Assembly (NCBI RefSeq): GCF_008065095.1
Contig: NZ_CP042911.1
Coordinates: 2,010,001 to 2,042,000, forward strand
DNA from: Gemmata obscuriglobus
GTDB taxonomy: Bacteria; Planctomycetota; Planctomycetia; Gemmatales; Gemmataceae
Direction of reading: 5' to 3'
DNA: 32,000 bases
In this document: positions 2,095 to 30,949 of the stretch, one piece after another
How positions within the stretch are numbered: the first letter of the stretch is position 1
Layout: every line of letters starts with the position of its first letter
The notes under the pieces: generated by a model
What the model was told of the DNA's origin: nothing
The model's input: only the letters and a program-made list of their open reading frames with translations
Database searches by the model: none
Program-made: the position numbers and the translations under genes

Positions 2095-2844
2095 TCAGGC
2101 GCCAGCCACACCCCCGCCGCGGTTAGCAAGGAGAAATGACTCGAGCCCGCTCGGCCCGCCGGTGTGGACGAACAGATACGTGACGTTTCCGCGGGACCCT
2201 TGTTTCACGAGTACTTGGGCCCGAGCGTGTGAACTGCTCACCTCGGGCACGTTCTTGAGGTTGAAGCCGCTGTCGTGTGGGAAGACGTAAACCACCGCGA
2301 ACCCGCCGTCCGTGCGGCTGCGGAACACGAGCACCGGCACGTCGCGCCCTTGAACCGTCTCGTGACCGCGGTAGGTGAGCAGGTCGTAATCGAACGGCAG
2401 CGGGAGCCGGTCTGGCAACCTCTGCGCCGCCAGCCACCGTTCGGTGCTCTCTTGCTTGTTCGCGGAAAGCTCGCCGTTGCGCTCGACCAGATGCGACACG
2501 TCGAGGGCGGGCCGCGTGTTCGAGATGACCCCCGCACCGATACCGATCAGGAGCAGCGCCGCAGTGGCCATCGCGGCGTACTGGTACACCTTCCGACGAA
2601 GTACCTCGCCCCGCTTGCTCGCGGCGTGCGCGACGAGCTTGCCCCGCAGGCCCGCGGGGACCGGGACGTTCACCATCGCGCGCCCCACCGCGCGGTCGAA
2701 TGAGGCGATCGCGCGGGCGTCCGCGGCGCACGCCGGGCAGGTCGCCAGGTGTTGGTCGAGCGGCGCCGTAACGTCCGCGCCGAGTTCGTCGGCCACTTGG
2801 CGCCGCATGCGGAGGTAAAATTGTGCGTCGCGGCAGTCCATCAC
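2095..2844 (-). CDS. Anti-sigma factor (zf-HC2 type), single-pass membrane protein
   Basis: The N-terminus has the zf-HC2 pattern (CRDAQFYL...HLATCPACAA). One TM helix (AAMATAALLLIGIGAGVI). The start (GTGATG) overlaps the stop of the upstream ECF sigma gene. Confidence 0.8.
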   Translation of the reverse strand: MMDCRDAQFYLRMRRQVADELGADVTAPLDQHLATCPACAADARAIASFDRAVGRAMVNVPVPAGLRGKLVAHAASKRGEVLRRKVYQYAAMATAALLLIGIGAGVISNTRPALDVSHLVERNGELSANKQESTERWLAAQRLPDRLPLPFDYDLLTYRGHETVQGRDVPVLVFRSRTDGGFAVVYVFPHDSGFNLKNVPEVSSSHARAQVLVKQGSRGNVTYLFVHTGGPSGLESFLLANRGGGVAGA

Positions 2845-3386
2845 GTCACCTTCTTCGGGCCGTCTCCTGAGAGGGCCGGTTGTTCCTGGTCGGCGCCGTC
2901 GGGCGGTGCCAGTCGCGACCGGAGGTACGCCTTCCCGCGGGCCAACCGCGACATCACCGTTCCGATCGGCAGTTCCATCTGATCGGCGATGTCGCGGTAG
3001 CTGAAGTCTTCAAAATAAAACAGAATGATCGGCGTTCGGAACGTTTCGTCCAGGTCGTTCAGCGCCTGCTGCAGTTTCGCCGGATCGATCTCGGGCATCT
3101 CGTCGGCCGAGCGCCCCGGCAGATCGCCGACCGCATCGAGCGGGACGACCCGGTGCCGCTTCTGGTCACGGACTTTGTGCAGGTACAGGTTCCGCAAAAT
3201 TCGGAACAGCCAGGCCCTGGCGCGATCGAGTTCGCGTAGCTGCGGCAACCGGGCGAGTGCCTTACCGAACGTCTCTTGCGTGAGGTCTTCGGCGTCCGAA
3301 GACGACCCGCTGAGCCGGTAGGCGTACCGGTAGAGTGCCTCGTAGTGGGCGTCGATCAACTGGTGCAACTCACCGTTCGACCCCAT
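2841..3386 (-). CDS. ECF-family RNA polymerase sigma-70 factor
   Basis: 181 aa. Sigma region 2 (YEALYRYAYRLSGSSSDAEDLTQETF) and region 4 HTH (FSYRDIADQMELPIGTVMSRLARGKAYLR). GAGGAG sits upstream of the ATG. Confidence 0.9.
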   Translation of the reverse strand: MGSNGELHQLIDAHYEALYRYAYRLSGSSSDAEDLTQETFGKALARLPQLRELDRARAWLFRILRNLYLHKVRDQKRHRVVPLDAVGDLPGRSADEMPEIDPAKLQQALNDLDETFRTPIILFYFEDFSYRDIADQMELPIGTVMSRLARGKAYLRSRLAPPDGADQEQPALSGDGPKKVT

Positions 3387-10324: not shown

Positions 10325-10398
10325 GCGCGTGTAGCTCAGTTGGTACGAGCACGTCGCTGATAACGACGGGGTCCCTGGTTCAAATCCAGGCACGCGCA
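10325..10398 (+). tRNA. tRNA-Ile (anticodon GAT)
   Basis: Cloverleaf folded by hand: acceptor GCGCGTG/CACGCGC, D arm GCTC..GAGC, anticodon stem CGTCG/CGACG with loop CTGATAA, T arm CCTGG-TTCAAAT-CCAGG. 74 nt. CCA is not fully encoded. Confidence 0.93.
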
Positions 10399-10418
10399 CC
10401 TGTTTTTAAGTATATGGC

Positions 10419-10491
10419 GGGGGTGTAGCTCAGTTGGTAGAGCGCCTGCTTTGCAAGCAGGATGTCAGGGGTTCGAGTCCCCTCTCCTCCA
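10419..10491 (+). tRNA. tRNA-Ala (anticodon TGC)
   Basis: GGGGGTG acceptor with the G3:U70 pair, anticodon stem CCTGC/GCAGG with loop TTTGCAA, T arm AGGGG-TTCGAGT-CCCCT. 73 nt. There is one U-U mismatch at 6:67 in the acceptor stem. Confidence 0.9.
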
Positions 10492-10603
10492 CACCACTGA
10501 TGGTAGCCTGATCTGATGCCTGGGAAGTGGTGACAGGTGTCTTAAGCCGCAACGACCCGCAAGCGATTTGCGAAAAAGTGAAGAAGAAAAATTGCGGGTC
10601 AGG

Positions 10604-10631
10604 TTGACGAGCGAATGGTCGCCGCTAGTAT
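10604..10631 (+). promoter_or_regulatory. Second near-consensus sigma-70 promoter, between tRNA-Ala and the 23S rRNA, with an A-rich upstream tract
   Basis: TTGACG (10604-10609), 16-nt spacer, TAGTAT (10626-10631). It is preceded by gaaaaagtgaagaagaaaaatt, which looks like an UP element. Spacing and -10 form match the promoter at 10129. Confidence 0.5.
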
Positions 10632-10809
10632 TGAGGATGTCGCAACGTTATGTTTGATAGGACGTTGCGACAAATTGATGTGATGGTGGTCGAAAGTTGG
10701 ACTTGCATCATTCGACAGGGTGAGTAAGTCGTTTGGGTTGCTGTCCTACTTCAAATGAAGTGGTTAAGTAGCCCAATATTCGCGGACAGTTAAGCTGCCC
10801 GTTAGTAGC

Positions 10810-10821
10810 GGTCTTTGACAA
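10810..10821 (+). promoter_or_regulatory. boxA-like antitermination element in the 23S leader
   Basis: GGTCTTTGACAA matches the rrn boxA core GCTCTTTAACAA (recalled from memory) at 10 of 12 positions. Confidence 0.45.
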
Positions 10822-11076
10822 CGTGGTGAAGCAAGTTAAGTTGCATCTTCGTCGGTGCCGCTTGCGGGTCGTCTGGGTGCGGCGTCGCTCCTTCGGGTGC
10901 GGGGTCGGGTCCGGCGGGTTGCGGGTGGTGGCGATCAGTGACAAGACGAGACACGAGCCTTAGAAGTGGTTGAGATAATCTCCGTGCGTGGCACATATCG
11001 GTGCCGCCGCGGAACTAGTGGTGATGCTCGACTGACGGTACCCGCTTGCCGGCGGGTGCGGTGGCCTGGGCAGTGC

Positions 11077-13826
<2,750 letters not shown>

Positions 13827-13924
13827 GCACTCCCCACTCCACCGCCCGTGTCTTGATACACATGCGACTTGACGCTTCACCACGTTGTACTGATACACCG
13901 TCGGGGTAACCCGACACGAACCAT

Positions 13925-14031
13925 GCCGGTGACCATACCCAAACGGAAACACCCGTTCCCATTCCGAACACGGCCGTGAAACGTTTGAGGCCGATGGTAG
14001 TGCGTCCAGCGCGAGAGTAGGTATCGCCGGC
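13925..14031 (+). rRNA. rrf: 5S ribosomal RNA (short, about 107 nt)
   Basis: GCCGGTGACCATACCC...CCCGTTCCCATTCCGAACACGGCCGTGAAAC...GGTAGTGCG...GAGAGTAGGTATCGCCGGC. The terminal helix GCCGGTGA/TCGCCGGC closes the molecule. Confidence 0.9.
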
Positions 14032-14041
14032 TAATTACAAT

Positions 14042-21745: not shown

Positions 21746-23971
21746 TCACTCTTTCTTGAGTGAGGCGGGCTTCCAGTTCAGCCCGATGGCCACGCCGCGT
21801 TCCTGCTTCGCCTGGATCGCCCATGGCGAGCCCTTGTACTTCGTCACGATCTCGCCGAACAGGGCTTGCGCCTCTTCGGCAATCTTCTTCACCTCTTTAC
21901 CGCTCCGGAGCGTGTCGGCCGCCACCAGCGTGTACCCGTCCTGGCCCAGCTTCGGGTCGAGCGCCGGTACCGATTCGGTTACCAGGTTCCCGAGGAGTTT
22001 GTTGTACTCGTTCATGTACGCGAGCCGGGCCTTCAGCACGGCCAGCGCGAAGTCGTAGTGGGCCTGCCACCGCTTGCTCGGCTCTTCTTTGCGGGCGTCG
22101 GTCAGCCCCTCCAGCTTGATCAGCTCCAGTTCCAGTTCGGCGATGCTGACGGCCCAGAACTCTTGCTCCTTCTTCACGGCGGCCTTGAGGTTGTCGTTGA
22201 TCGACCCGGTGATGGTGTCGCGGATGCGCGTCGCGCCGGCGCCCGGCGCCCACATCTGCCGCAACTTGCCGAACACCTCCAGCACCGCCACCCGGAGGGG
22301 GTACTTCTCCTTGTCCGCCATCACGTCGGCGATCTTCACGTCCTCGGCGTAGTCCTTCATCACGTCGGCGGGGAACGGGAAGTCGGCCAGCCCGATCTCG
22401 CTTAGGCCCGGGCGCAGCGGCGGCAGGGCGAGTTCGCGTTCCACCGATTTGACCTCGGCCGGTGAAGCCCCTTTCGGCGCCTGGGGCAGGTCGAAGCGGG
22501 CGGCGACCTTCTCGGCCGGGTCGGGTGGGGCCAGCGTCGCCGGGGCGGCCCCGGTGAGCGTCACCGTTTGCTTGCCGCCGCTGCCGGACTTCTCGGCGAT
22601 GTCGCAGATCTCGTTGGTTCGCTTGGCGACGGCCGGGTGCCAGTCGTCGATCGGGAGCGGGTCCGCCGGAGTCGGGGGCGTTTTGGCGAGGCGGGCGTTG
22701 GCGACGAACCGGGCGGCTTCGAGGAACGCGCTGCCGCTGTACATCGGCCCCGCGAAGCCGTCGGGCCGCAACTGGGTCAGTTCCAGCGCGTTCTCGCCGG
22801 CCTTGCAGGTGGTCACGACCTGAACGCCGGCCGGCGGGGTGGTGAGCGCCTTGAACAGGCCCGCGCTCATGGGCTCGGACCCGGGCCGCACCTTGCCCTT
22901 CTCGGGGTTCAGCCGGCACACGTCCCACACCACCACCTTTTGCGCCGCCTTGCACTTCTTTAGCTCGTCGTAAAAGTGGTCCAGTGGGATCACGGTCTTC
23001 TGCCAGTCGTCGCCGTCGAGTTCGGCCTCGATCGGGGCGAGGTACGCCTTACCGTCCTTCTCGATCGCGTGCCCGCCGAAGTAGATGAAGACGCGGTCCT
23101 GGGCGCGGGAGGTCTTGAAGAACTCCTGGTAGGTGCCCTGGACCACGTTTTTCATTGGGAGCCGCTCGTTTTTGCCGGTCGCCGTGTCGGACAGCACGAA
23201 CGTCTGGTCGTTGTCCTTGTCGCGGGGCACGCGCCAGTTGAACGCCATGTTGTTGGCGACCCCGGCCGGGCGGTCTGTGGCCCCGCCCGCGACCCCGGCG
23301 GTGAGCGGGTTCAGGTACATGTATTTGGTGACGGAGATGAACAGCATCCGCCGCGGCAAGGTGGCGTTGGCCCCCTTCGAGGGGCCGGAGCCGCCGGGCG
23401 CTGTGCCGGGGGATTGTCCCGTGCCCGGGGGCGGATCGGAGGCGTCTTTCCCGGGCTCTTTGTTCTTATTGTTGATGGCGAGTAGGTCGCCGATCGCTTG
23501 TTCGCCGTAGAGGATGCCCGCGCCGACGAGCCCTGCGGCCAGCACAAAAAACAGCGCGACCCCAATGAGGGCGCCCGAGCCGCGGTTGCGCCTCCTGGCC
23601 CGGACCGCAACGCCGCCCTCGGCGGGGTCCAGATCGAACGCGTGATCCGACGCGGACGGCCGGGCGGTTTTCGGCTTCGCCCGGCGCGCCGGGCGGTCCG
23701 GGTCCACTGGCGTGTTGGGCACGGGTTGGGCCACCAGAACGGGTGGTGGGTAGCCCAGCGGAAGCGGGTAAGCTGCCGCCGAGAGGCCGTTCGTCTCGTA
23801 GGCCGGGACGGGGACCGGCTGTGGGAGCACGCCGGGTGTGAGTGGGACTTTGGTCGTCGCCCGGATCAGTGCTCCGCACTTCTTGCACTTCACCGTCTGG
23901 CCGATCCACCGAGCCGGGATGTTCAGTGCGTTCTGGCACTTCGGGCAGGTGGCTCGCACGGCCGATTCCAT
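21746..23971 (-). CDS. Zinc-ribbon / proline-rich linker / TM helix / caspase-like (peptidase C14-like) domain protein
   Basis: 741 aa. N-terminal CPKCQN...VKCKKCGA zinc ribbon. TM helix ALIGVALFFVLAAGLVGAGILY. Then RRMLFISVTKYMYLNPL...DRVFIYFGGHAIEKDGKAYLAPIEA...KVVVWDVCRLNPEKG resembles the His/Cys dyad blocks of bacterial caspase homologs. The roughly 330-aa C-terminal region is unassigned. Confidence 0.75.
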   Translation of the reverse strand: MESAVRATCPKCQNALNIPARWIGQTVKCKKCGALIRATTKVPLTPGVLPQPVPVPAYETNGLSAAAYPLPLGYPPPVLVAQPVPNTPVDPDRPARRAKPKTARPSASDHAFDLDPAEGGVAVRARRRNRGSGALIGVALFFVLAAGLVGAGILYGEQAIGDLLAINNKNKEPGKDASDPPPGTGQSPGTAPGGSGPSKGANATLPRRMLFISVTKYMYLNPLTAGVAGGATDRPAGVANNMAFNWRVPRDKDNDQTFVLSDTATGKNERLPMKNVVQGTYQEFFKTSRAQDRVFIYFGGHAIEKDGKAYLAPIEAELDGDDWQKTVIPLDHFYDELKKCKAAQKVVVWDVCRLNPEKGKVRPGSEPMSAGLFKALTTPPAGVQVVTTCKAGENALELTQLRPDGFAGPMYSGSAFLEAARFVANARLAKTPPTPADPLPIDDWHPAVAKRTNEICDIAEKSGSGGKQTVTLTGAAPATLAPPDPAEKVAARFDLPQAPKGASPAEVKSVERELALPPLRPGLSEIGLADFPFPADVMKDYAEDVKIADVMADKEKYPLRVAVLEVFGKLRQMWAPGAGATRIRDTITGSINDNLKAAVKKEQEFWAVSIAELELELIKLEGLTDARKEEPSKRWQAHYDFALAVLKARLAYMNEYNKLLGNLVTESVPALDPKLGQDGYTLVAADTLRSGKEVKKIAEEAQALFGEIVTKYKGSPWAIQAKQERGVAIGLNWKPASLKKE

Positions 23972-26362: not shown

Positions 26363-26842
26363 ATGCTGCCCGTTGTGAACTGTAACCGCTGTGGTCAGTC
26401 TGTGGCTGTCGGCTCCGACACCCGGTACGTCACCTGTGCCCACTGCCGCACGCCGCTGGTGGTGATCCGGACCGACTCGTCGGCGTTTACCGACGTTGCC
26501 GCCCGCCAAAAAGAGCTGGAGCGCGTCGACAGCGAGTGGGAGGAGGAGAAACGGCGCGAGCACAGCTCCAGGGACAAGAACGGCAACTGGCGCACGCCGG
26601 ACGAGTTTCTTGAACCCGCCATCGGGTCTGGGATTTTGGTCGTATTCACGTTTTTTGCGTTATTCGTGATGATGTTGAGGGATCGGAGGTACGAGGGCCT
26701 TCCGGTGCTCGTACTCCTCGTGGTACCGTTCGGCCTGATGATTGCCGATGCGGTCAGAAAGGCACGGCGATACTGGCGAGCCGAAAGCCGTTATCGCGCG
26801 CGGCGGACGGCGATCGAACACCGCCCGCCTGACGTCTGGTGA
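26363..26842 (+). CDS. Membrane protein with N-terminal zinc ribbon
   Basis: 159 aa. CNRCGQ...CAHCRT (CxxC-x17-CxxC). Two TM helices (GILVVFTFFALFVMML, VLVLLVVPFGLMIADAV). GAGGGGG lies upstream of the ATG. Confidence 0.7.
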   Translation: MLPVVNCNRCGQSVAVGSDTRYVTCAHCRTPLVVIRTDSSAFTDVAARQKELERVDSEWEEEKRREHSSRDKNGNWRTPDEFLEPAIGSGILVVFTFFALFVMMLRDRRYEGLPVLVLLVVPFGLMIADAVRKARRYWRAESRYRARRTAIEHRPPDVW

Positions 26843-26858: not shown

Positions 26859-28688
26859 TCACTTGCTGTCGCGCTGGGGTTGGAGCCGGAGCGGCGCCTT
26901 TCTCTCGTACAGCTTTAACCGCTCATGCACGGTGAGGTCGTGTGCTTTCGCGTACCCCGTGTCGAGCTGCACCATCTTTTGGGTTCGGATCGCGTACTCG
27001 AACTCGCCGGCTTCGGCGCAGGCCGCGGCGTACGCTTCCAGGGCCAACCCGCTCCGCCAGTGGGTCGCCTCGCAGGCCGCTTTGGCGTCTTCCAGCGCTT
27101 TCGTCGCGTCGCGCAGTGCGGCGTCCCCGGCCGCGGCCCGGAGCAGCCCCCGATTCGCCAGAGCGGTTGCGTGCTTCGGGTCGAGGCGGAGCGCTTCGTC
27201 GAAGTCCCCCAGCGCGGCGCCCCAAGCCCCCATTACGAACCGCACGGCGCCGCGGTCGTTAAAGGCCCACACGAACGTGGGGTCGAGTCGGATCGATTCC
27301 GTCAGGTCCTTGATCGCCCGGTCGTAGTCGCGCATCGCGAGGTGGACGCTTCCCCGGGCGTAAAAGATGCGGGCGTTGTTCGGATCGAGCCGGGCGGCCG
27401 CGTCGTAGTCCGTTAAGGCCTTATCGAACTCCCCCTGCGCGTGCCAGCGGGCTCCGCGCTCGAAGAGGAGCGCCGCACCGTTCGGAGCGGTCGGTGACTG
27501 AAACCGGTACGGCTTTCCGGCCTCATACAGCGCGAGCCGCGCTCTGGCCACGGCCCCTGCGGGGCCGTCGTAGCCCGGGTGCTTGAGAGCCTTATTTTGC
27601 CACTTCACGGCGTCGGGGAAGTCGCCGGATTCGGCGGCCGCGGCCGCCCGCGCCTCGATCGCGGCCGGGTTCTTCCAGCCCGACAGCTCGCCGGCCCGGT
27701 CCGCGTCCTTGATCGCTTGAGCCGGGTCACGATGTTTGGCTTCAGGGCAACTCGCGAGAACCCATGCGCGGTTCAGGAACGCGAAGCGGTGGTTCGGATC
27801 GAGGAGAATGACCTCCGTCAGGTCCCGGAGCGCGGCGTCCCAGTTCGAGCGGGCCAAGTGAACGGAACTCCGGTGGACGCGCGCGTCCGGGTTTCGGGGG
27901 GCCGACCGTACCGCCTGGTCGGCGTCCTTGAGCGCTTCATCGAGTTCGGACCGTAACATTCGGCACGTACTTCGGAACAGGAGGTATTCCGCCTTCTCGG
28001 GTGCGAGGCGAACGGCTTCGTCTAAATCTGTCAGCGTCGCGGCCCACCGTCCCTGGCGAAAGAGCAGGGCCGCCCGGTTGAAGAAAGCCAGCGACTGCTT
28101 CGGGTCGAGGCGGAGCGCTTCGTTGTAATCGGCGAGCGCCTTATCGAACTGCCCGGCTGTCGCGTGTGCCGTGCCGCGACCGACGAGTGCGTTCGTGTGC
28201 TTGGGGTCGAGGCGGAGCGCTTCGTTGTAATCGGCGAGCGCTTTGTCGAACTGTTTCACGTGTTCAAATGCCAGTGCGCGGTTGTAAAACGCCGGGGCGA
28301 AGTCCGGGGTCATTTCGATGAAATCGGTGAGATCCGCGATCGCTTTTTCGGGCCAGCCCAGGTGAGCGTAAGCCAGGCCGCGGTAGTACCGGGTGGTCGC
28401 GTTGTTCGGGTCGCGCTTGAGGGCTTCTGTCAGGTCGCTCAGCGCCGCCGCGTCGTTGCCGTTCGCCTGGTGGGCGGTTCCGCGTGCGCTGTATGCGGCG
28501 GCGCTGTCCGGATCGAGTTTGATGGCCCTGGTGTAATCCCGGATCGCGTCCTCGTATTTCCCGTTCGCGAAGGACTCGGCGCCCCGCTCCAGTAACTCGT
28601 GAACCGTGTCCGGTTCGGGGCCGGCGGTCGCGGGGGCCGCGACCGCGAAGAGCCAAACGGCAATCGCGATTCGGATACGCATGGGCAT
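26859..28688 (-). CDS. Secreted tetratricopeptide (TPR) repeat protein
   Basis: Start taken at MPMRIRIAIAVWLFAVAAPATAG (ATG 28688 or 28682; GAAGGA precedes it). More than 12 TPR-like units, e.g. AIRDYTRAIKLDPDSAAAYSARG and ALADYNEALRLDPKHTNALVGRG (the second is repeated almost verbatim). The 97 upstream codons of the track ORF are Arg/Pro-rich and probably not translated. Confidence 0.85.
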   Translation of the reverse strand: MPMRIRIAIAVWLFAVAAPATAGPEPDTVHELLERGAESFANGKYEDAIRDYTRAIKLDPDSAAAYSARGTAHQANGNDAAALSDLTEALKRDPNNATTRYYRGLAYAHLGWPEKAIADLTDFIEMTPDFAPAFYNRALAFEHVKQFDKALADYNEALRLDPKHTNALVGRGTAHATAGQFDKALADYNEALRLDPKQSLAFFNRAALLFRQGRWAATLTDLDEAVRLAPEKAEYLLFRSTCRMLRSELDEALKDADQAVRSAPRNPDARVHRSSVHLARSNWDAALRDLTEVILLDPNHRFAFLNRAWVLASCPEAKHRDPAQAIKDADRAGELSGWKNPAAIEARAAAAAESGDFPDAVKWQNKALKHPGYDGPAGAVARARLALYEAGKPYRFQSPTAPNGAALLFERGARWHAQGEFDKALTDYDAAARLDPNNARIFYARGSVHLAMRDYDRAIKDLTESIRLDPTFVWAFNDRGAVRFVMGAWGAALGDFDEALRLDPKHATALANRGLLRAAAGDAALRDATKALEDAKAACEATHWRSGLALEAYAAACAEAGEFEYAIRTQKMVQLDTGYAKAHDLTVHERLKLYERKAPLRLQPQRDSK

Positions 28689-28846
28689 TCCTTCGAATGT
28701 GGCGTGGGGTAGTTTAACCGCAACTCGCCTGATCTGCCAGCGGCCGTTCTCACGGACCCTTCGGTTGCTTCTTTCCGGCGGCGTATCAAACTGGACCGCG
28801 GCGGGGAGTAACGGGTGGGGCCGTTTTGTGACCAAGCGAGGACCAA

Positions 28847-30949
28847 GTGAACACCGTTCTTCAACTCCTCGACGCCGTGGCAGGGGCCGGCGCACGGACC
28901 GACGGCCAACTTCTGGATTCGTTCGCCCGCCGGCGCGACCAGGGGGCGTTCGCGGAACTCGTTCACCGGCACGGGGCAATGGTGCTGGGCGTGTGCCGGC
29001 GGGTGCTGGGAAACGCCGCCGACGCGGACGACGCGTTCCAGGCGGTGTTCCTGGTACTCGCCCGCAAGGCGGCTGCCGTGCGGGACCGCGAGCGGCTCGG
29101 GCCGTGGCTCCACGGGGTCGCGTTCAATGCCGCACGCCGGCTCAAGCGGTCGAACCTGCGGCGGACCGCCCGCGAGCGCGGCCGCGCGGGGCAACTCGAA
29201 CAGACTGCCGGGGCCGCCGACGAGCGCGCCGAGTTGCACGCGGCACTCGACGAGGAACTCGCGCGACTCCCGGACCGGTACCGCTCGGTGCTGGTGCTGT
29301 GCGATCTGGAAGGCCGCACGCGGAAAGAGGCCGCGCACGCCCTCGGGTGCCCGGAGGGGACCGTCGGCGGGCGCCTGGCCCGTGCCCGGGAACTGCTCGC
29401 GGCCCGGCTCGGCGCCCGCGGCGTGTGCCCGGCCCTCGGGGCGCTCGCCGGGGCGCTGGTGCCGGCCGGGGCGGGGGCCGTCGCCCCGGCGCTGGTTGCC
29501 GCACTGGTTCGCGCGGTGGGCGTCGACGAACTGGCGCGCGACGCGGCCCGCGGGCCGATCTCCTCGCACGTGTCCGAACTGGCCGAAGGGGTGGTGAGCA
29601 GCATGTTCGCGATCAAGCTTCAGAAAGTGACGGCCGCGGTGCTGTGCTGCGGCCTGGCGCTCGCGTGCGCGGCCGGCGGCGTCCGCCTCGCGAACGCCCA
29701 GCCGGAGCCGGAATTCACGCCCGTGCCGCTGCTGACGAAAGACCCCGCGCTGAAGAGATCGCGGCAGGAACTCGAAGAGCGAGCGAGAGAGTTGCAAGAC
29801 ACCCGGAAACGACAACAAGCACTCGAGGAGGTCGTTCCCGGTGTACCACGCCGCGCGGCCATTATACCTCTTCGGAAACTCGATTCCGGTGAAGTCGCCC
29901 CGATGCTCGCTAAATTTTTCGACCCGCGGCGCGTGACCATCGCGGCGCTGCCCGGCGACAAGTCGTTACTCGTCTACGCCGACGAGAAGACGCATGCGAA
30001 GATCCGGGAGTTACTCCTTCAGATGGGGGAGCCCGCGCCCCGGAACGTAACCGCGTTTCGGCTCAACAAGACGGCCGACCTAGCCGGCACCGTTAAAACG
30101 CTCGCTGCCGCGTTCGGCCCGGATCGTGCTGTTCTCGTCCCGGTTCCGGTTGAGCAGGTGCTCCTCGTTTACGCGAGCGAACCCGACACACAGACCGTGC
30201 AGAAACTCCTCGCGAATGTGCTGCTCCCTGAATCTGGCAGGTTGGACAATGTGTTCATGAAAACAGTAAGGCTGAAGAACATTCTTGCCGAGGACGCGTC
30301 GGCGGAGGTGCGGGCGCAGTTCGGCAGGAGCGTTTCGGCGGTCGCGCTGCCGTCGAGCCGGCAACTGATGCTGTACGGGCCGGTAGACGTGGTCGAAGCC
30401 GCGCTCAAGGTTGTCACCGCGCTGGACGAGGGCGGGACGGCGAAGACGTTCGAAATGCAATTTCAGAAGGCCGCGTGGCCGGATGTGCTCGACTGGTACG
30501 CGAAGGTGTCTGGGCGAGTTATGAGCACGACCGTGAAGCCAACGGGGACGTTTACGTTTGCCGCTCCCAAACCGGGACAGCGGTACACACTCGCAGATGT
30601 CACAGACATCATTAACGAAGCTCTGATGCAGCAGAAGCTCCTGCTCGTCCCCTGGCACACGACGTTCTTCATCCTCAAGCCGTCCGACGAGAAACTCGAT
30701 TCGTTGATCGTGCCGTTGATCTCGCTGGAAGATTTGCCGCGGTTCGGGCGGACGGAACTGGTTCAGGTCATCGTTCCGGTTCCGAAGGGTGCGGCGGAGG
30801 AGTTGGTCCCAGCGGTCAAGAAGAGGCTTGGGCCGTTCGGGTCGGTTACAACTCTCCATCGGGCGGATGCGCTGGTGGTTCAGGATGTTGCGGAGAACGT
30901 CCGCGAGGTGTGCAAAATCTTCGGCGTGCCGACCGACCCGAAGCGGTAA
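28847..30949 (+). CDS. ECF sigma factor fused via a linker and one TM helix to a roughly 420-aa extracytoplasmic region built from secretin-N-like repeats
   Basis: 700 aa, GTG start. Sigma-2 (FAELVHRHGAMVLGVCRRVLGNAADADDAFQAVFLVLARK) and sigma-4 (LPDRYRSVLVLCDLEGRTRKEAAHALGCPEGTVGGRLARARELL). TM helix VTAAVLCCGLALACAAGGVRL at aa 261-281. Repeat units of about 58 aa at aa 338-395, 400-458, 469-527 and 638-692 share the pattern xxhxLKxxxAxxhxxxh...(10-15)...LLVYAxxxxxxxhxxLL. Confidence 0.85.
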   Translation: MNTVLQLLDAVAGAGARTDGQLLDSFARRRDQGAFAELVHRHGAMVLGVCRRVLGNAADADDAFQAVFLVLARKAAAVRDRERLGPWLHGVAFNAARRLKRSNLRRTARERGRAGQLEQTAGAADERAELHAALDEELARLPDRYRSVLVLCDLEGRTRKEAAHALGCPEGTVGGRLARARELLAARLGARGVCPALGALAGALVPAGAGAVAPALVAALVRAVGVDELARDAARGPISSHVSELAEGVVSSMFAIKLQKVTAAVLCCGLALACAAGGVRLANAQPEPEFTPVPLLTKDPALKRSRQELEERARELQDTRKRQQALEEVVPGVPRRAAIIPLRKLDSGEVAPMLAKFFDPRRVTIAALPGDKSLLVYADEKTHAKIRELLLQMGEPAPRNVTAFRLNKTADLAGTVKTLAAAFGPDRAVLVPVPVEQVLLVYASEPDTQTVQKLLANVLLPESGRLDNVFMKTVRLKNILAEDASAEVRAQFGRSVSAVALPSSRQLMLYGPVDVVEAALKVVTALDEGGTAKTFEMQFQKAAWPDVLDWYAKVSGRVMSTTVKPTGTFTFAAPKPGQRYTLADVTDIINEALMQQKLLLVPWHTTFFILKPSDEKLDSLIVPLISLEDLPRFGRTELVQVIVPVPKGAAEELVPAVKKRLGPFGSVTTLHRADALVVQDVAENVREVCKIFGVPTDPKR

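Follow-up and report, generated by a model that had tools for sequence, protein, structure and literature searches.

Jogler et al. reportedly described, in 2012, planctomycetal sigma factors of the extracytoplasmic function (ECF) type that bear long C-terminal extensions. Dozens of such extended ECFs are encoded by planctomycetes, and to our knowledge it is not known what they sense or how they are activated. The group ECF57 is planctomycetal, has C-terminal extensions that mostly consist of WD40 repeats, and carries two conserved cysteines possibly linking sigma2 to sigma4 (PMC8999054). It averages 5.3 copies per planctomycetal genome (PMC7826278), and duplicated planctomycetal ECFs gain unrelated C-terminal extensions (PMC7671368). 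Here we describe a gene of this kind from Gemmata obscuriglobus, which lies at 28847..30949 (+) of a 32,000-nucleotide (nt) stretch of forward strand (GCF_008065095.1, NZ_CP042911.1, positions 2,010,001-2,042,000), referred to below as the window. In domain order, the protein consists of sigma2-sigma4, a conserved linker, one transmembrane helix, three secretin N1-type domains and one N0-N1 pair. On balance, we lean towards reading it as a one-component, single-pass transmembrane ECF sigma factor, ECF57-like in its core, that uses the secretin-type array as a sensor, would be released by proteolysis and would then transcribe its own gene. That planctomycetal ECFs can have C-terminal extensions was known, as the initial annotation of this DNA had noted; what is new is a probable sensor of secretin type on them. 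Our literature search found no published sigma-Secretin_N fusion, and the papers on planctomycetal extended ECFs that we consulted do not mention secretin domains, although Secretin_N may be listed uncommented in the Pfam heat map of PMC7671368.

Several described systems resemble this protein in part. Like ECF57/ex-ECF01-Gob, it comes from a planctomycete, has many paralogues, a long C-terminal extension and two cysteines (one in sigma2 and one in sigma4), and is encoded next to no anti-sigma gene (PMC7826278, PMC8999054, PMC7671368). Unlike the WD40-type ECF57 proteins, its outer part is a secretin N1 plus N0-N1 array, and the group was matched by description. Similar to IutY of Pseudomonas putida (ECF243), a fusion of FecI-FecR type, a single chain would hold a cytoplasmic sigma factor, a single transmembrane segment and a periplasmic sensing part, and IutY is the only tested precedent for regulated proteolysis of a fused sigma factor (PMC8999054). 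However, IutY contains a FecR anti-sigma domain and signals via a TonB-dependent receptor, whereas the protein described here belongs to a different sigma group, has secretin-type outer domains and has no detectable anti-sigma domain. The actinobacterial groups ECF48, ECF52 and ECF53 (e.g. SCO4117) also combine sigma factor, membrane span and outer sensor in one chain, with proteolysis predicted, but these have a ZAS domain, transmembrane helices and a carbohydrate-binding outer domain, and belong to a different phylum (PMC8999054).

In concept, the arrangement also recalls FecR and PupR, with a secretin/TonB N-terminal-type fold as the periplasmic docking domain of a sigma-regulating membrane protein. 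In these anti-sigma factors, a periplasmic STN-like subdomain contacts the signalling domain of the TonB-dependent transducer. In contrast to our protein, FecR and PupR are separate anti-sigma proteins of another family, and the Pfam STN and FecR models do not match here. The array shares with the N0-N1 domains of GspD/XcpQ (5mp2, 4e9j, 3ezj, 3oss) the same fold, and sequence homology across the 160-amino-acid (aa) pair. It differs from them in lacking the pore domain, in its order (N1-N1-N1-N0-N1 as opposed to N0-N1-N2-N3), in its predicted inner-membrane anchor and in its fusion to a sigma factor.

The gene is a single uninterrupted frame of 700 aa plus stop, beginning with GTG. A Shine-Dalgarno sequence, GAGGA, can be read 5 nt before the GTG (28838..28842, +), and this upstream GAGGA together with the (M/V)NTV that forms the first residues of all orthologues supports the start. 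The orthologous loci, which were obtained by exact-protein look-ups, keep GCGAGG at the ribosome-binding position. A recorded G. obscuriglobus protein, P0001, is a 100% identical match and bears the annotation 'ECF RNA polymerase sigma factor SigW'. G+C content in the window is 62-68%, and chance open reading frames (ORFs) of 428-459 aa overlap the gene in other frames. With a G+C of 68% and such chance ORFs present, the long frame could itself have arisen by chance or by a sequencing error that joined two genes. We give this reading practically no credence. The identical protein is recorded for three contigs of G. obscuriglobus, of which one is a draft contig and the other two exceed 1 Mb, and therefore the fusion of sigma factor and extension, which the initial annotation had read as one polypeptide, is not a frameshift or an assembly artefact. 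Additionally, the architecture recurs without interruption in more than 50 homologues belonging to several genera, and selection acts on every segment. Judged by these homology and selection data, 28847..30949 is the real gene among the overlapping ORFs, and the artefact reading is refuted.

The sigma part is that of a complete ECF sigma factor, as first annotated. Sigma region 2 (aa 38-104, with Cys50; 28958..29158, +) matches Pfam PF04542 Sigma70_r2 at E = 1e-10 and was modelled by AlphaFold2 with a predicted local distance difference test score (pLDDT) of ∼90, while region 4 (aa 132-184, with Cys152; 29240..29398, +) matches PF08281 Sigma70_r4_2 at E = 1.2e-13. With 72.9 bits, the match to the TIGR02937 sigma70-ECF model lies well above its cutoff (42.9), and no NCBIfam equivalog-level model reached its own cutoff for this protein. 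Scans of the protein with Pfam and NCBIfam gave no match to sigma region 1 or region 3. Regions 2 and 4 are thus present while regions 1 and 3 are absent, as is characteristic of ECF (group 4) sigma-70 factors. In agreement with this, Foldseek matched the sigma part to SigW, CnrH, AlgU and sigmaE, and the best sigma matches are ECF sigma factors. The extension beyond this core measures 510 aa. In close homologues, WD40, LRR, HEAT, PDZ and other domains follow the same core of sigma factor, linker and transmembrane helix. A scan of genome contigs with sigma-core patterns confirmed at least 432 related loci, mostly from Gemmataceae and Isosphaeraceae, and the contigs held mostly paralogues bearing other extensions; G. 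obscuriglobus itself was not among the loci listed. Because the descriptions of ECF57 fit and close homologues carry WD40, LRR, HEAT or PDZ domains, we place the sigma core in the ECF57/ex-ECF01-Gob class, an assignment made by match to the published description.

An alignment of 85 homologues showed that C152 is invariant and C50 nearly so. This conservation would be expected if activity were controlled by the cysteines, with Cys50 and Cys152 locking sigma2 to sigma4 through a disulphide or a metal and the extension being of secondary importance. Such a control was proposed for ECF57 in PMC8999054, where the disulphide idea is credited to PMC7826278. As an account of the whole protein we consider it quite improbable, since it leaves the transmembrane helix, the extracytoplasmic motif and the conserved outer domains unexplained. 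A cysteine switch can, however, coexist as a second layer with a membrane-tethered sigma factor that is released on a signal.

The outer part contains the secretin-N-like repeats suggested by the initial annotation. Pfam Secretin_N matches the C-terminal part with 76 bits, against a cutoff of 28.2, and AlphaFold2 gives all four units the same beta-alpha-beta-beta-alpha fold (mean pLDDT 90 for aa 331-700 and 82 for the full protein). Unit 1 (aa 334-394; 29846..30028, +) reaches 36.8 bits with PF03958 on its own and a pLDDT above 90, and unit 3 (aa 467-531; 30245..30439, +) reaches 32 bits on its own. Unit 2 (aa 398-456; 30038..30214, +), modelled with a pLDDT of ∼90, gave no Pfam Secretin_N match alone and was counted only within the whole C-terminal part. 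Unit 4 (aa 636-693; 30752..30925, +) scores 18.9 bits alone and is a secretin N1-type domain, the N1 half of the final pair. Pairwise identity among the four units is only 20-28%, and because of this a BLASTP self-comparison of aa 326-700 detected no internal repeats. In a Foldseek search of the C-terminal model against the PDB, the 43 best matches were all secretin chains, with N0-N1(-N2) crystal structures among them; examples are 8co1 (5e-8), XcpQ N012, GspD 3ezj, the GspC-GspD complex 3oss and the N0N1 structures of InvG, EscC and MxiD. When the C-terminal part was compared with PDB sequences by phmmer as a single sequence, nothing meaningful was returned.

The module between units 3 and 4 (aa 533-612; 30443..30682, +) does not belong to the repeats and had been likened to an N0/STN-type domain. 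To compare it with known sequences, we built a profile of 166 aa from aa 533-700 and 19 homologous modules. This N0-N1 profile aligned end-to-end with residues 19-169 of XcpQ, comprising N0 and N1, at E = 8e-6. Additionally, positions 31-150 of the TIGR02517 GspD model match aa 567-691. On these alignments the odd module is an N0 domain that pairs with unit 4 as N0-N1, and its identity to the secretin P0239 (described below) agrees with this. The STN half of the earlier comparison did not stand: Pfam STN (PF07660) had no match at E up to 10 in the whole protein or in aa 531-618 alone. The assignment as N0 is instead based on the match to the GspD family model and on the profile alignment to PDB sequences. 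Thus, Pfam, the NCBIfam GspD model, the PDB profile search, AlphaFold2 and Foldseek concur on secretin domains. While periplasmic domains of the N0 and N1 types are both present, the Secretin pore domain PF00263 had no match in the protein at E up to 10, and the chain ends 7 residues past the N1 domain. In the absence of a pore domain, the protein is therefore not a secretin.

To find relatives of the N0-N1 module, its profile was searched exhaustively against 1.84 billion representatives, which yielded 4307 proteins with E up to 1e-3, of which 863 had E up to 1e-30. The 150 best of these 4307 matches comprised 25 sigma fusions, 16 giant secretins of 1956-2304 aa with one N-terminal module, two Ser/Thr kinase fusions, and 107 proteins of neither type (stand-alone arrays or fragments). 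In the giant secretin P0239 the module spans residues 65-227 and is accompanied by nine Secretin_N stretches and a Secretin domain (E = 1.4e-47); this N-terminal foot is 44% identical to the module in the window over 160 aa. P0250, P0259 and others are further giant secretins with one N0-N1 foot and a C-terminal Secretin domain. In Tuwongella immobilis, the giant secretin (L084, 10001-16357; 2118 aa) stands in a row of type II secretion genes, the named ones being GspE, GspF, GspG, GspJ and GspK, with only one short gene after it. Our literature search found no published description of giant Gemmataceae secretins. Judged by sequence identity, the N0-N1 pair and the periplasmic foot of giant GspD secretins in related Gemmataceae are close paralogues, and since the two are 44% identical, the idea of the initial annotation that the array docks to a secretin gains a concrete basis.

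The two kinase fusions, P0206 (1319 aa) and P0254 (1552 aa), consist of a kinase, one transmembrane helix and N0-N1 modules. Both begin with an H-x3-C-x2-C zinc-finger-like motif, as in anti-sigma domains, and P0254 also carries WD40 repeats. The stand-alone array proteins P0121, P0124 and P0129 have N-termini that look by eye like signal peptides. Sensory input domains are typically recognised by one outer module being combined with different cytoplasmic outputs, here two, and the secretin-foot N0-N1 module is thus probably a reusable sensor domain. That it also occurs on kinases and in stand-alone proteins whose N-termini resemble signal peptides points to a wider signalling input domain, so far undescribed. 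The sensor proposed here therefore has a relative of known function: the foot of the secretin of type II secretion (T2S), which elsewhere binds the inner-membrane platform: in solved systems, as in the 3oss complex found among the Foldseek matches, the N-terminal part of the secretin contacts GspC. The periplasmic foot of T2S secretins also binds cargo. The relationship to a secretin foot makes both the binding of the array to T2S components and the release of the sigma factor testable. A broader proposal, which we regard as possible though doubtful, is that the N0-N1 array would be a dedicated signalling input of the Gemmatales that docks to the giant T2S secretin or its inner-membrane partner, with sigma factors and kinases reading the state of assembly or cargo into transcription and stand-alone arrays competing or co-sensing. 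If the link to secretion is true, a single protein would couple a secretion machine directly to transcription.

The initial annotation had presented a sigma factor built with secretin N-domains as unfamiliar. This stood in so far as no published description was found, but the protein is not a lone case, as more than 50 protein clusters combine sigma domains with Secretin_N. Gemmata spp. and Frigoriglobus tundricola are their sources, along with metagenome bins, of which one bears the label Isosphaera sp. and another Planctomycetia. Most members are ∼900 aa long with two N0-N1 modules, and some have fewer Secretin_N units. Compared to its closest relatives, P0002 and P0003 (84-88% identical), the G. 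obscuriglobus protein has an in-frame gap of ∼200 aa, which is exactly one repeat period; as a result, at 30443-30925 the N0 of the first module directly joins the N1 of the second. It looks as if the G. obscuriglobus copy lost one tandem N0-N1 module by unequal recombination between the repeats. Relative to Gemmata sp. JC717, the sigma core has a ratio of nonsynonymous to synonymous substitution rates (dN/dS) of 0.15, while the three Secretin_N units give 0.32 and N0-N1 gives 0.35, with dS unsaturated. These values of 0.32-0.35 at unsaturated dS indicate that the outer part is maintained by selection.

The variable repeat number, including the module lost here, could also be taken to mean that the extension is an evolutionary accident, in which a duplicated minimal sigma gene landed ahead of a periplasmic secretin-N gene and captured it, and the outer part is not sensory. 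Such an origin was proposed for planctomycetal C-terminal extensions (PMC7671368), and stand-alone arrays with signal-peptide-like N-termini, as described above, exist. Against this, different genera retain the architecture at 41-50% identity, purifying selection acts on the outer domains, which are confidently folded in the AlphaFold2 model, and the same module occurs independently, in the same topology, on kinases. We therefore see little chance that the outer part is non-sensory; capture may account for the origin of the extension, not for its maintenance.

The proposed sensor and the sigma core are joined through a predicted cytoplasmic linker of ∼70 aa (aa 190-258; 29414..29620, +) and a single predicted transmembrane helix (aa 261-281; 29627..29689, +). 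The linker ends in a juxtamembrane motif, G236-x-I-S-x-R-V-A-x-L-T-E247-G-V249-x-x-x-M253-F, that is found family-wide. In the 85 homologues, which have unrelated outer domains, E247 is conserved in 81, V249 in 83 and M253 in 84. Thus, the linker is rich in Ala, Gly and Val as annotated, but this alignment marks it as a conserved family feature rather than a low-complexity spacer. AlphaFold2 confidence is low for aa 200-238 and falls below 50 for aa 203-238. No recognisable FecR, ZAS/zf-HC2 or RskA-type domain lies between sigma4 and the transmembrane helix. A hidden anti-sigma domain was also sought with a linker profile (aa 183-262, 27 homologues), which matched no Pfam family and, among PDB sequences, found no anti-sigma factor (the best match, at E = 0.046, was to an unrelated enzyme). 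These negative searches led us to set such a domain aside, with the limit that one too divergent to be detected is possible.

The transmembrane helix was identified from a 19-residue Kyte-Doolittle peak of 2.13 at aa 261-279, in agreement with the single helix first annotated, and lies inside a continuous AlphaFold2 helix at aa 240-282. Lys257 and Lys260 flank it on the side assigned to the cytoplasm. Together with the order of kinase, transmembrane helix and module in the kinase fusions, the hydropathy peak, the modelled helix, the flanking lysines and the signal-peptide-like N-termini of the stand-alone arrays point to a helix with its N-terminus inside and its C-terminus outside. A second candidate helix at aa 193-230 (Kyte-Doolittle 1.6-2.0) was rejected. 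This hydrophobic stretch is rich in Ala, Gly and Pro and was modelled with low confidence, and because most homologues carry Glu/Gln-Arg in its middle it is unlikely to span the membrane. Beyond the transmembrane helix, a charged helix at aa 300-328 (29744..29830, +; helical in the AlphaFold2 model) precedes the array. It is a fast-evolving, lineage-specific insertion that is missing or gapped in the 8 more distant of 10 aligned homologues.

A possible site of proteolytic release, a feature that the initial annotation had proposed looking for, lies just outside the membrane. The sequence A282-N-A284-Q-P286-E-P288 (29690..29710, +) belongs to an AxA-QPxP motif that recurs in the 85 homologues whatever their outer domain (A284 in 67, P288 in 64, P286 in 51 and A282 in 48). 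On this conservation and position, we propose A282-x-A284 as a candidate site-1 cleavage site of the signal-peptidase type. The alternative is that the sigma factor is never released and either acts while tethered, like ToxR or CadC, or forms a sequestered pool, with the array only positioning or oligomerising it at an envelope complex. No anti-sigma domain was detected and no protease gene lies nearby, and secretin N-domains are ring-building and docking modules, all of which would suit a permanently tethered protein. Additionally, Tuwongella ECF sigmas were recovered from detergent-soluble membrane fractions (PMC8567305). On the other hand, a sigma factor must bind the RNA polymerase core and open a promoter. 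We know of no membrane-tethered sigma factor that does open a promoter. AxA-QPxP and the juxtamembrane motif are conserved whichever outer domain follows, which points to a processing step common to the family, and proteolysis does release IutY, the only sigma fusion tested (PMC8999054). Thus, we judge a permanently tethered sigma factor to be unlikely.

The intergenic region 28689-28846, which had been suggested as a place to look for the target promoter, contains a promoter-like bipartite element, GTATCAAA-N12-GGGGAGTAAC-GGGTG (28783..28817, +), 30 nt upstream of the start codon. Its cross-species consensus is GTATCAAA-N12-GGGRAGTAAY-NGGTG, at a constant distance to the start. The element occurs once in the 32-kb window and once, at the same position, in each of L080 (G. 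obscuriglobus), L081 (Gemmata sp. JC717), L082 (Frigoriglobus), and L001 and L083 (two assemblies of one G. massiliana locus), which together represent four organisms; zero occurrences are expected by chance. When the composite motif was searched in the window and all loci, it was found only before 28847..30949 and its orthologues and not before the adjacent TPR gene. Further upstream, a block CCTTCGGTTGCTTCTTT (28758..28774, +) is conserved ahead of the orthologous genes in Gemmata sp. JC717, G. massiliana and Frigoriglobus, and is kept in G. massiliana despite a different upstream gene. A scan for sigma-70 consensus promoters found no site, and two terminator-like sites were no more than expected by chance. 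We propose that the bipartite element is the promoter targeted by the sigma factor itself.

The core of this element, CGGGnA.TA, is found upstream of ∼46 of 99 family paralogues, compared to 6 on the other strand. In the upstream regions of L001-L079 it lies 40-80 nt before the start, mostly at 50-70 nt, and is often followed by GGT(A/G). At promoter-like spacing it is preceded by alternative boxes, GTATCAA, GACGCGCC or GAAAAAA. The core and its alternative boxes may represent a family-wide promoter architecture with paralogue-specific -35 boxes.

In the mechanism we favour, the chain would insert into the membrane so that the sigma factor faces the cytoplasm and the secretin-type array the periplasm, and the tethered sigma factor would be kept inactive. 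By analogy to GspD N0-N1, the array would act as a protein-binding sensor for a T2S component (e.g. a GspC-like protein), for secretin N-rings or for cargo. A signal would lead to a cut outside the membrane at AxA-QPxP, followed by an intramembrane cut by a site-2 protease, and the freed sigma factor would transcribe from the GTATCAAA-N12-GGGGAGTAAC element of its own gene and from other promoters. The proteolytic step has a precedent in IutY, a sigma/anti-sigma fusion released by Prc and RseP (PMC8999054).

Several observations weigh against this mechanism. Because the class has no experimentally studied member, all five steps, from insertion to transcription, are inferred. The inactivity of the tethered sigma factor is left unexplained, as no anti-sigma domain could be detected in the linker, which is modelled with low confidence. 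The AxA motif is not universal, with A282 missing from nearly half of the homologues. The bipartite element is unlike classical ECF promoters (GGAAC ... CGTC), and another factor could bind it. No secretin, type II secretion or protease genes were present at the locus or at those of the orthologues. Lastly, the loss of one N0-N1 module appears to be tolerated in G. obscuriglobus, and the number of modules is therefore not critical.

The neighbouring genes were those described at the outset: a divergently transcribed, apparently secreted TPR protein on one side, and no anti-sigma gene among the neighbours. The TPR protein (26859..28682, -; 607 aa) matches Pfam TPR_1 at E = 3e-63, and its hydrophobic N-terminus resembles a signal peptide by eye. 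It is conserved beside the orthologues in Gemmata sp. JC717 (68% identity) and Frigoriglobus (45%). A tryptophan 2,3-dioxygenase gene lies downstream of the sigma gene and is kept in Gemmata sp. JC717 and Frigoriglobus, while the G. massiliana locus has neither the TPR gene nor the dioxygenase. TPR proteins among the relatives measure 607, 550 and 400 aa. The one from Frigoriglobus can be aligned with two different parts of the G. obscuriglobus protein, which seems to hold an internal duplication of a TPR block.

The sigma gene and its upstream region also differ from Gemmata sp. JC717 (L081) to an uneven degree. Over 28640-29700, the first 284 codons have a dS of 0.065 and the upstream region shows 2 differences in 230 nt, while in the remainder of the gene dS is 0.23-0.31 and reaches 1.4 in the charged helix. 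The near-identical 5' half suggests either recent recombination or gene conversion, or constraint at the DNA level.

Elsewhere in the window, two genes encode proteins without a Pfam match: a 741-aa protein with a zinc-ribbon-like CPKC...CKKC N-terminus and a hydrophobic stretch (21746-23971, -), and a 159-aa protein with C-x2-C...C-x2-C and hydrophobic stretches (26363-26842, +). Next to the gene of a conventional ECF sigma factor of 181 aa (2841-3386, -), and following it, lies that of a 249-aa protein which starts with an H-x3-C-x2-C motif, has one hydrophobic helix and weakly matches DUF3379; the two genes (2095-3386, -) look like a classical sigma/anti-sigma pair. Genes for tRNA-Ile, tRNA-Ala, 23S rRNA (11077-13828) and 5S rRNA (13925-14032) occupy 10325-14032 (+), which explains why this region is low in G+C and has no ORFs. 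No 16S rRNA gene lies upstream of them within the window, and an rRNA operon with an unlinked 16S gene would fit this arrangement.

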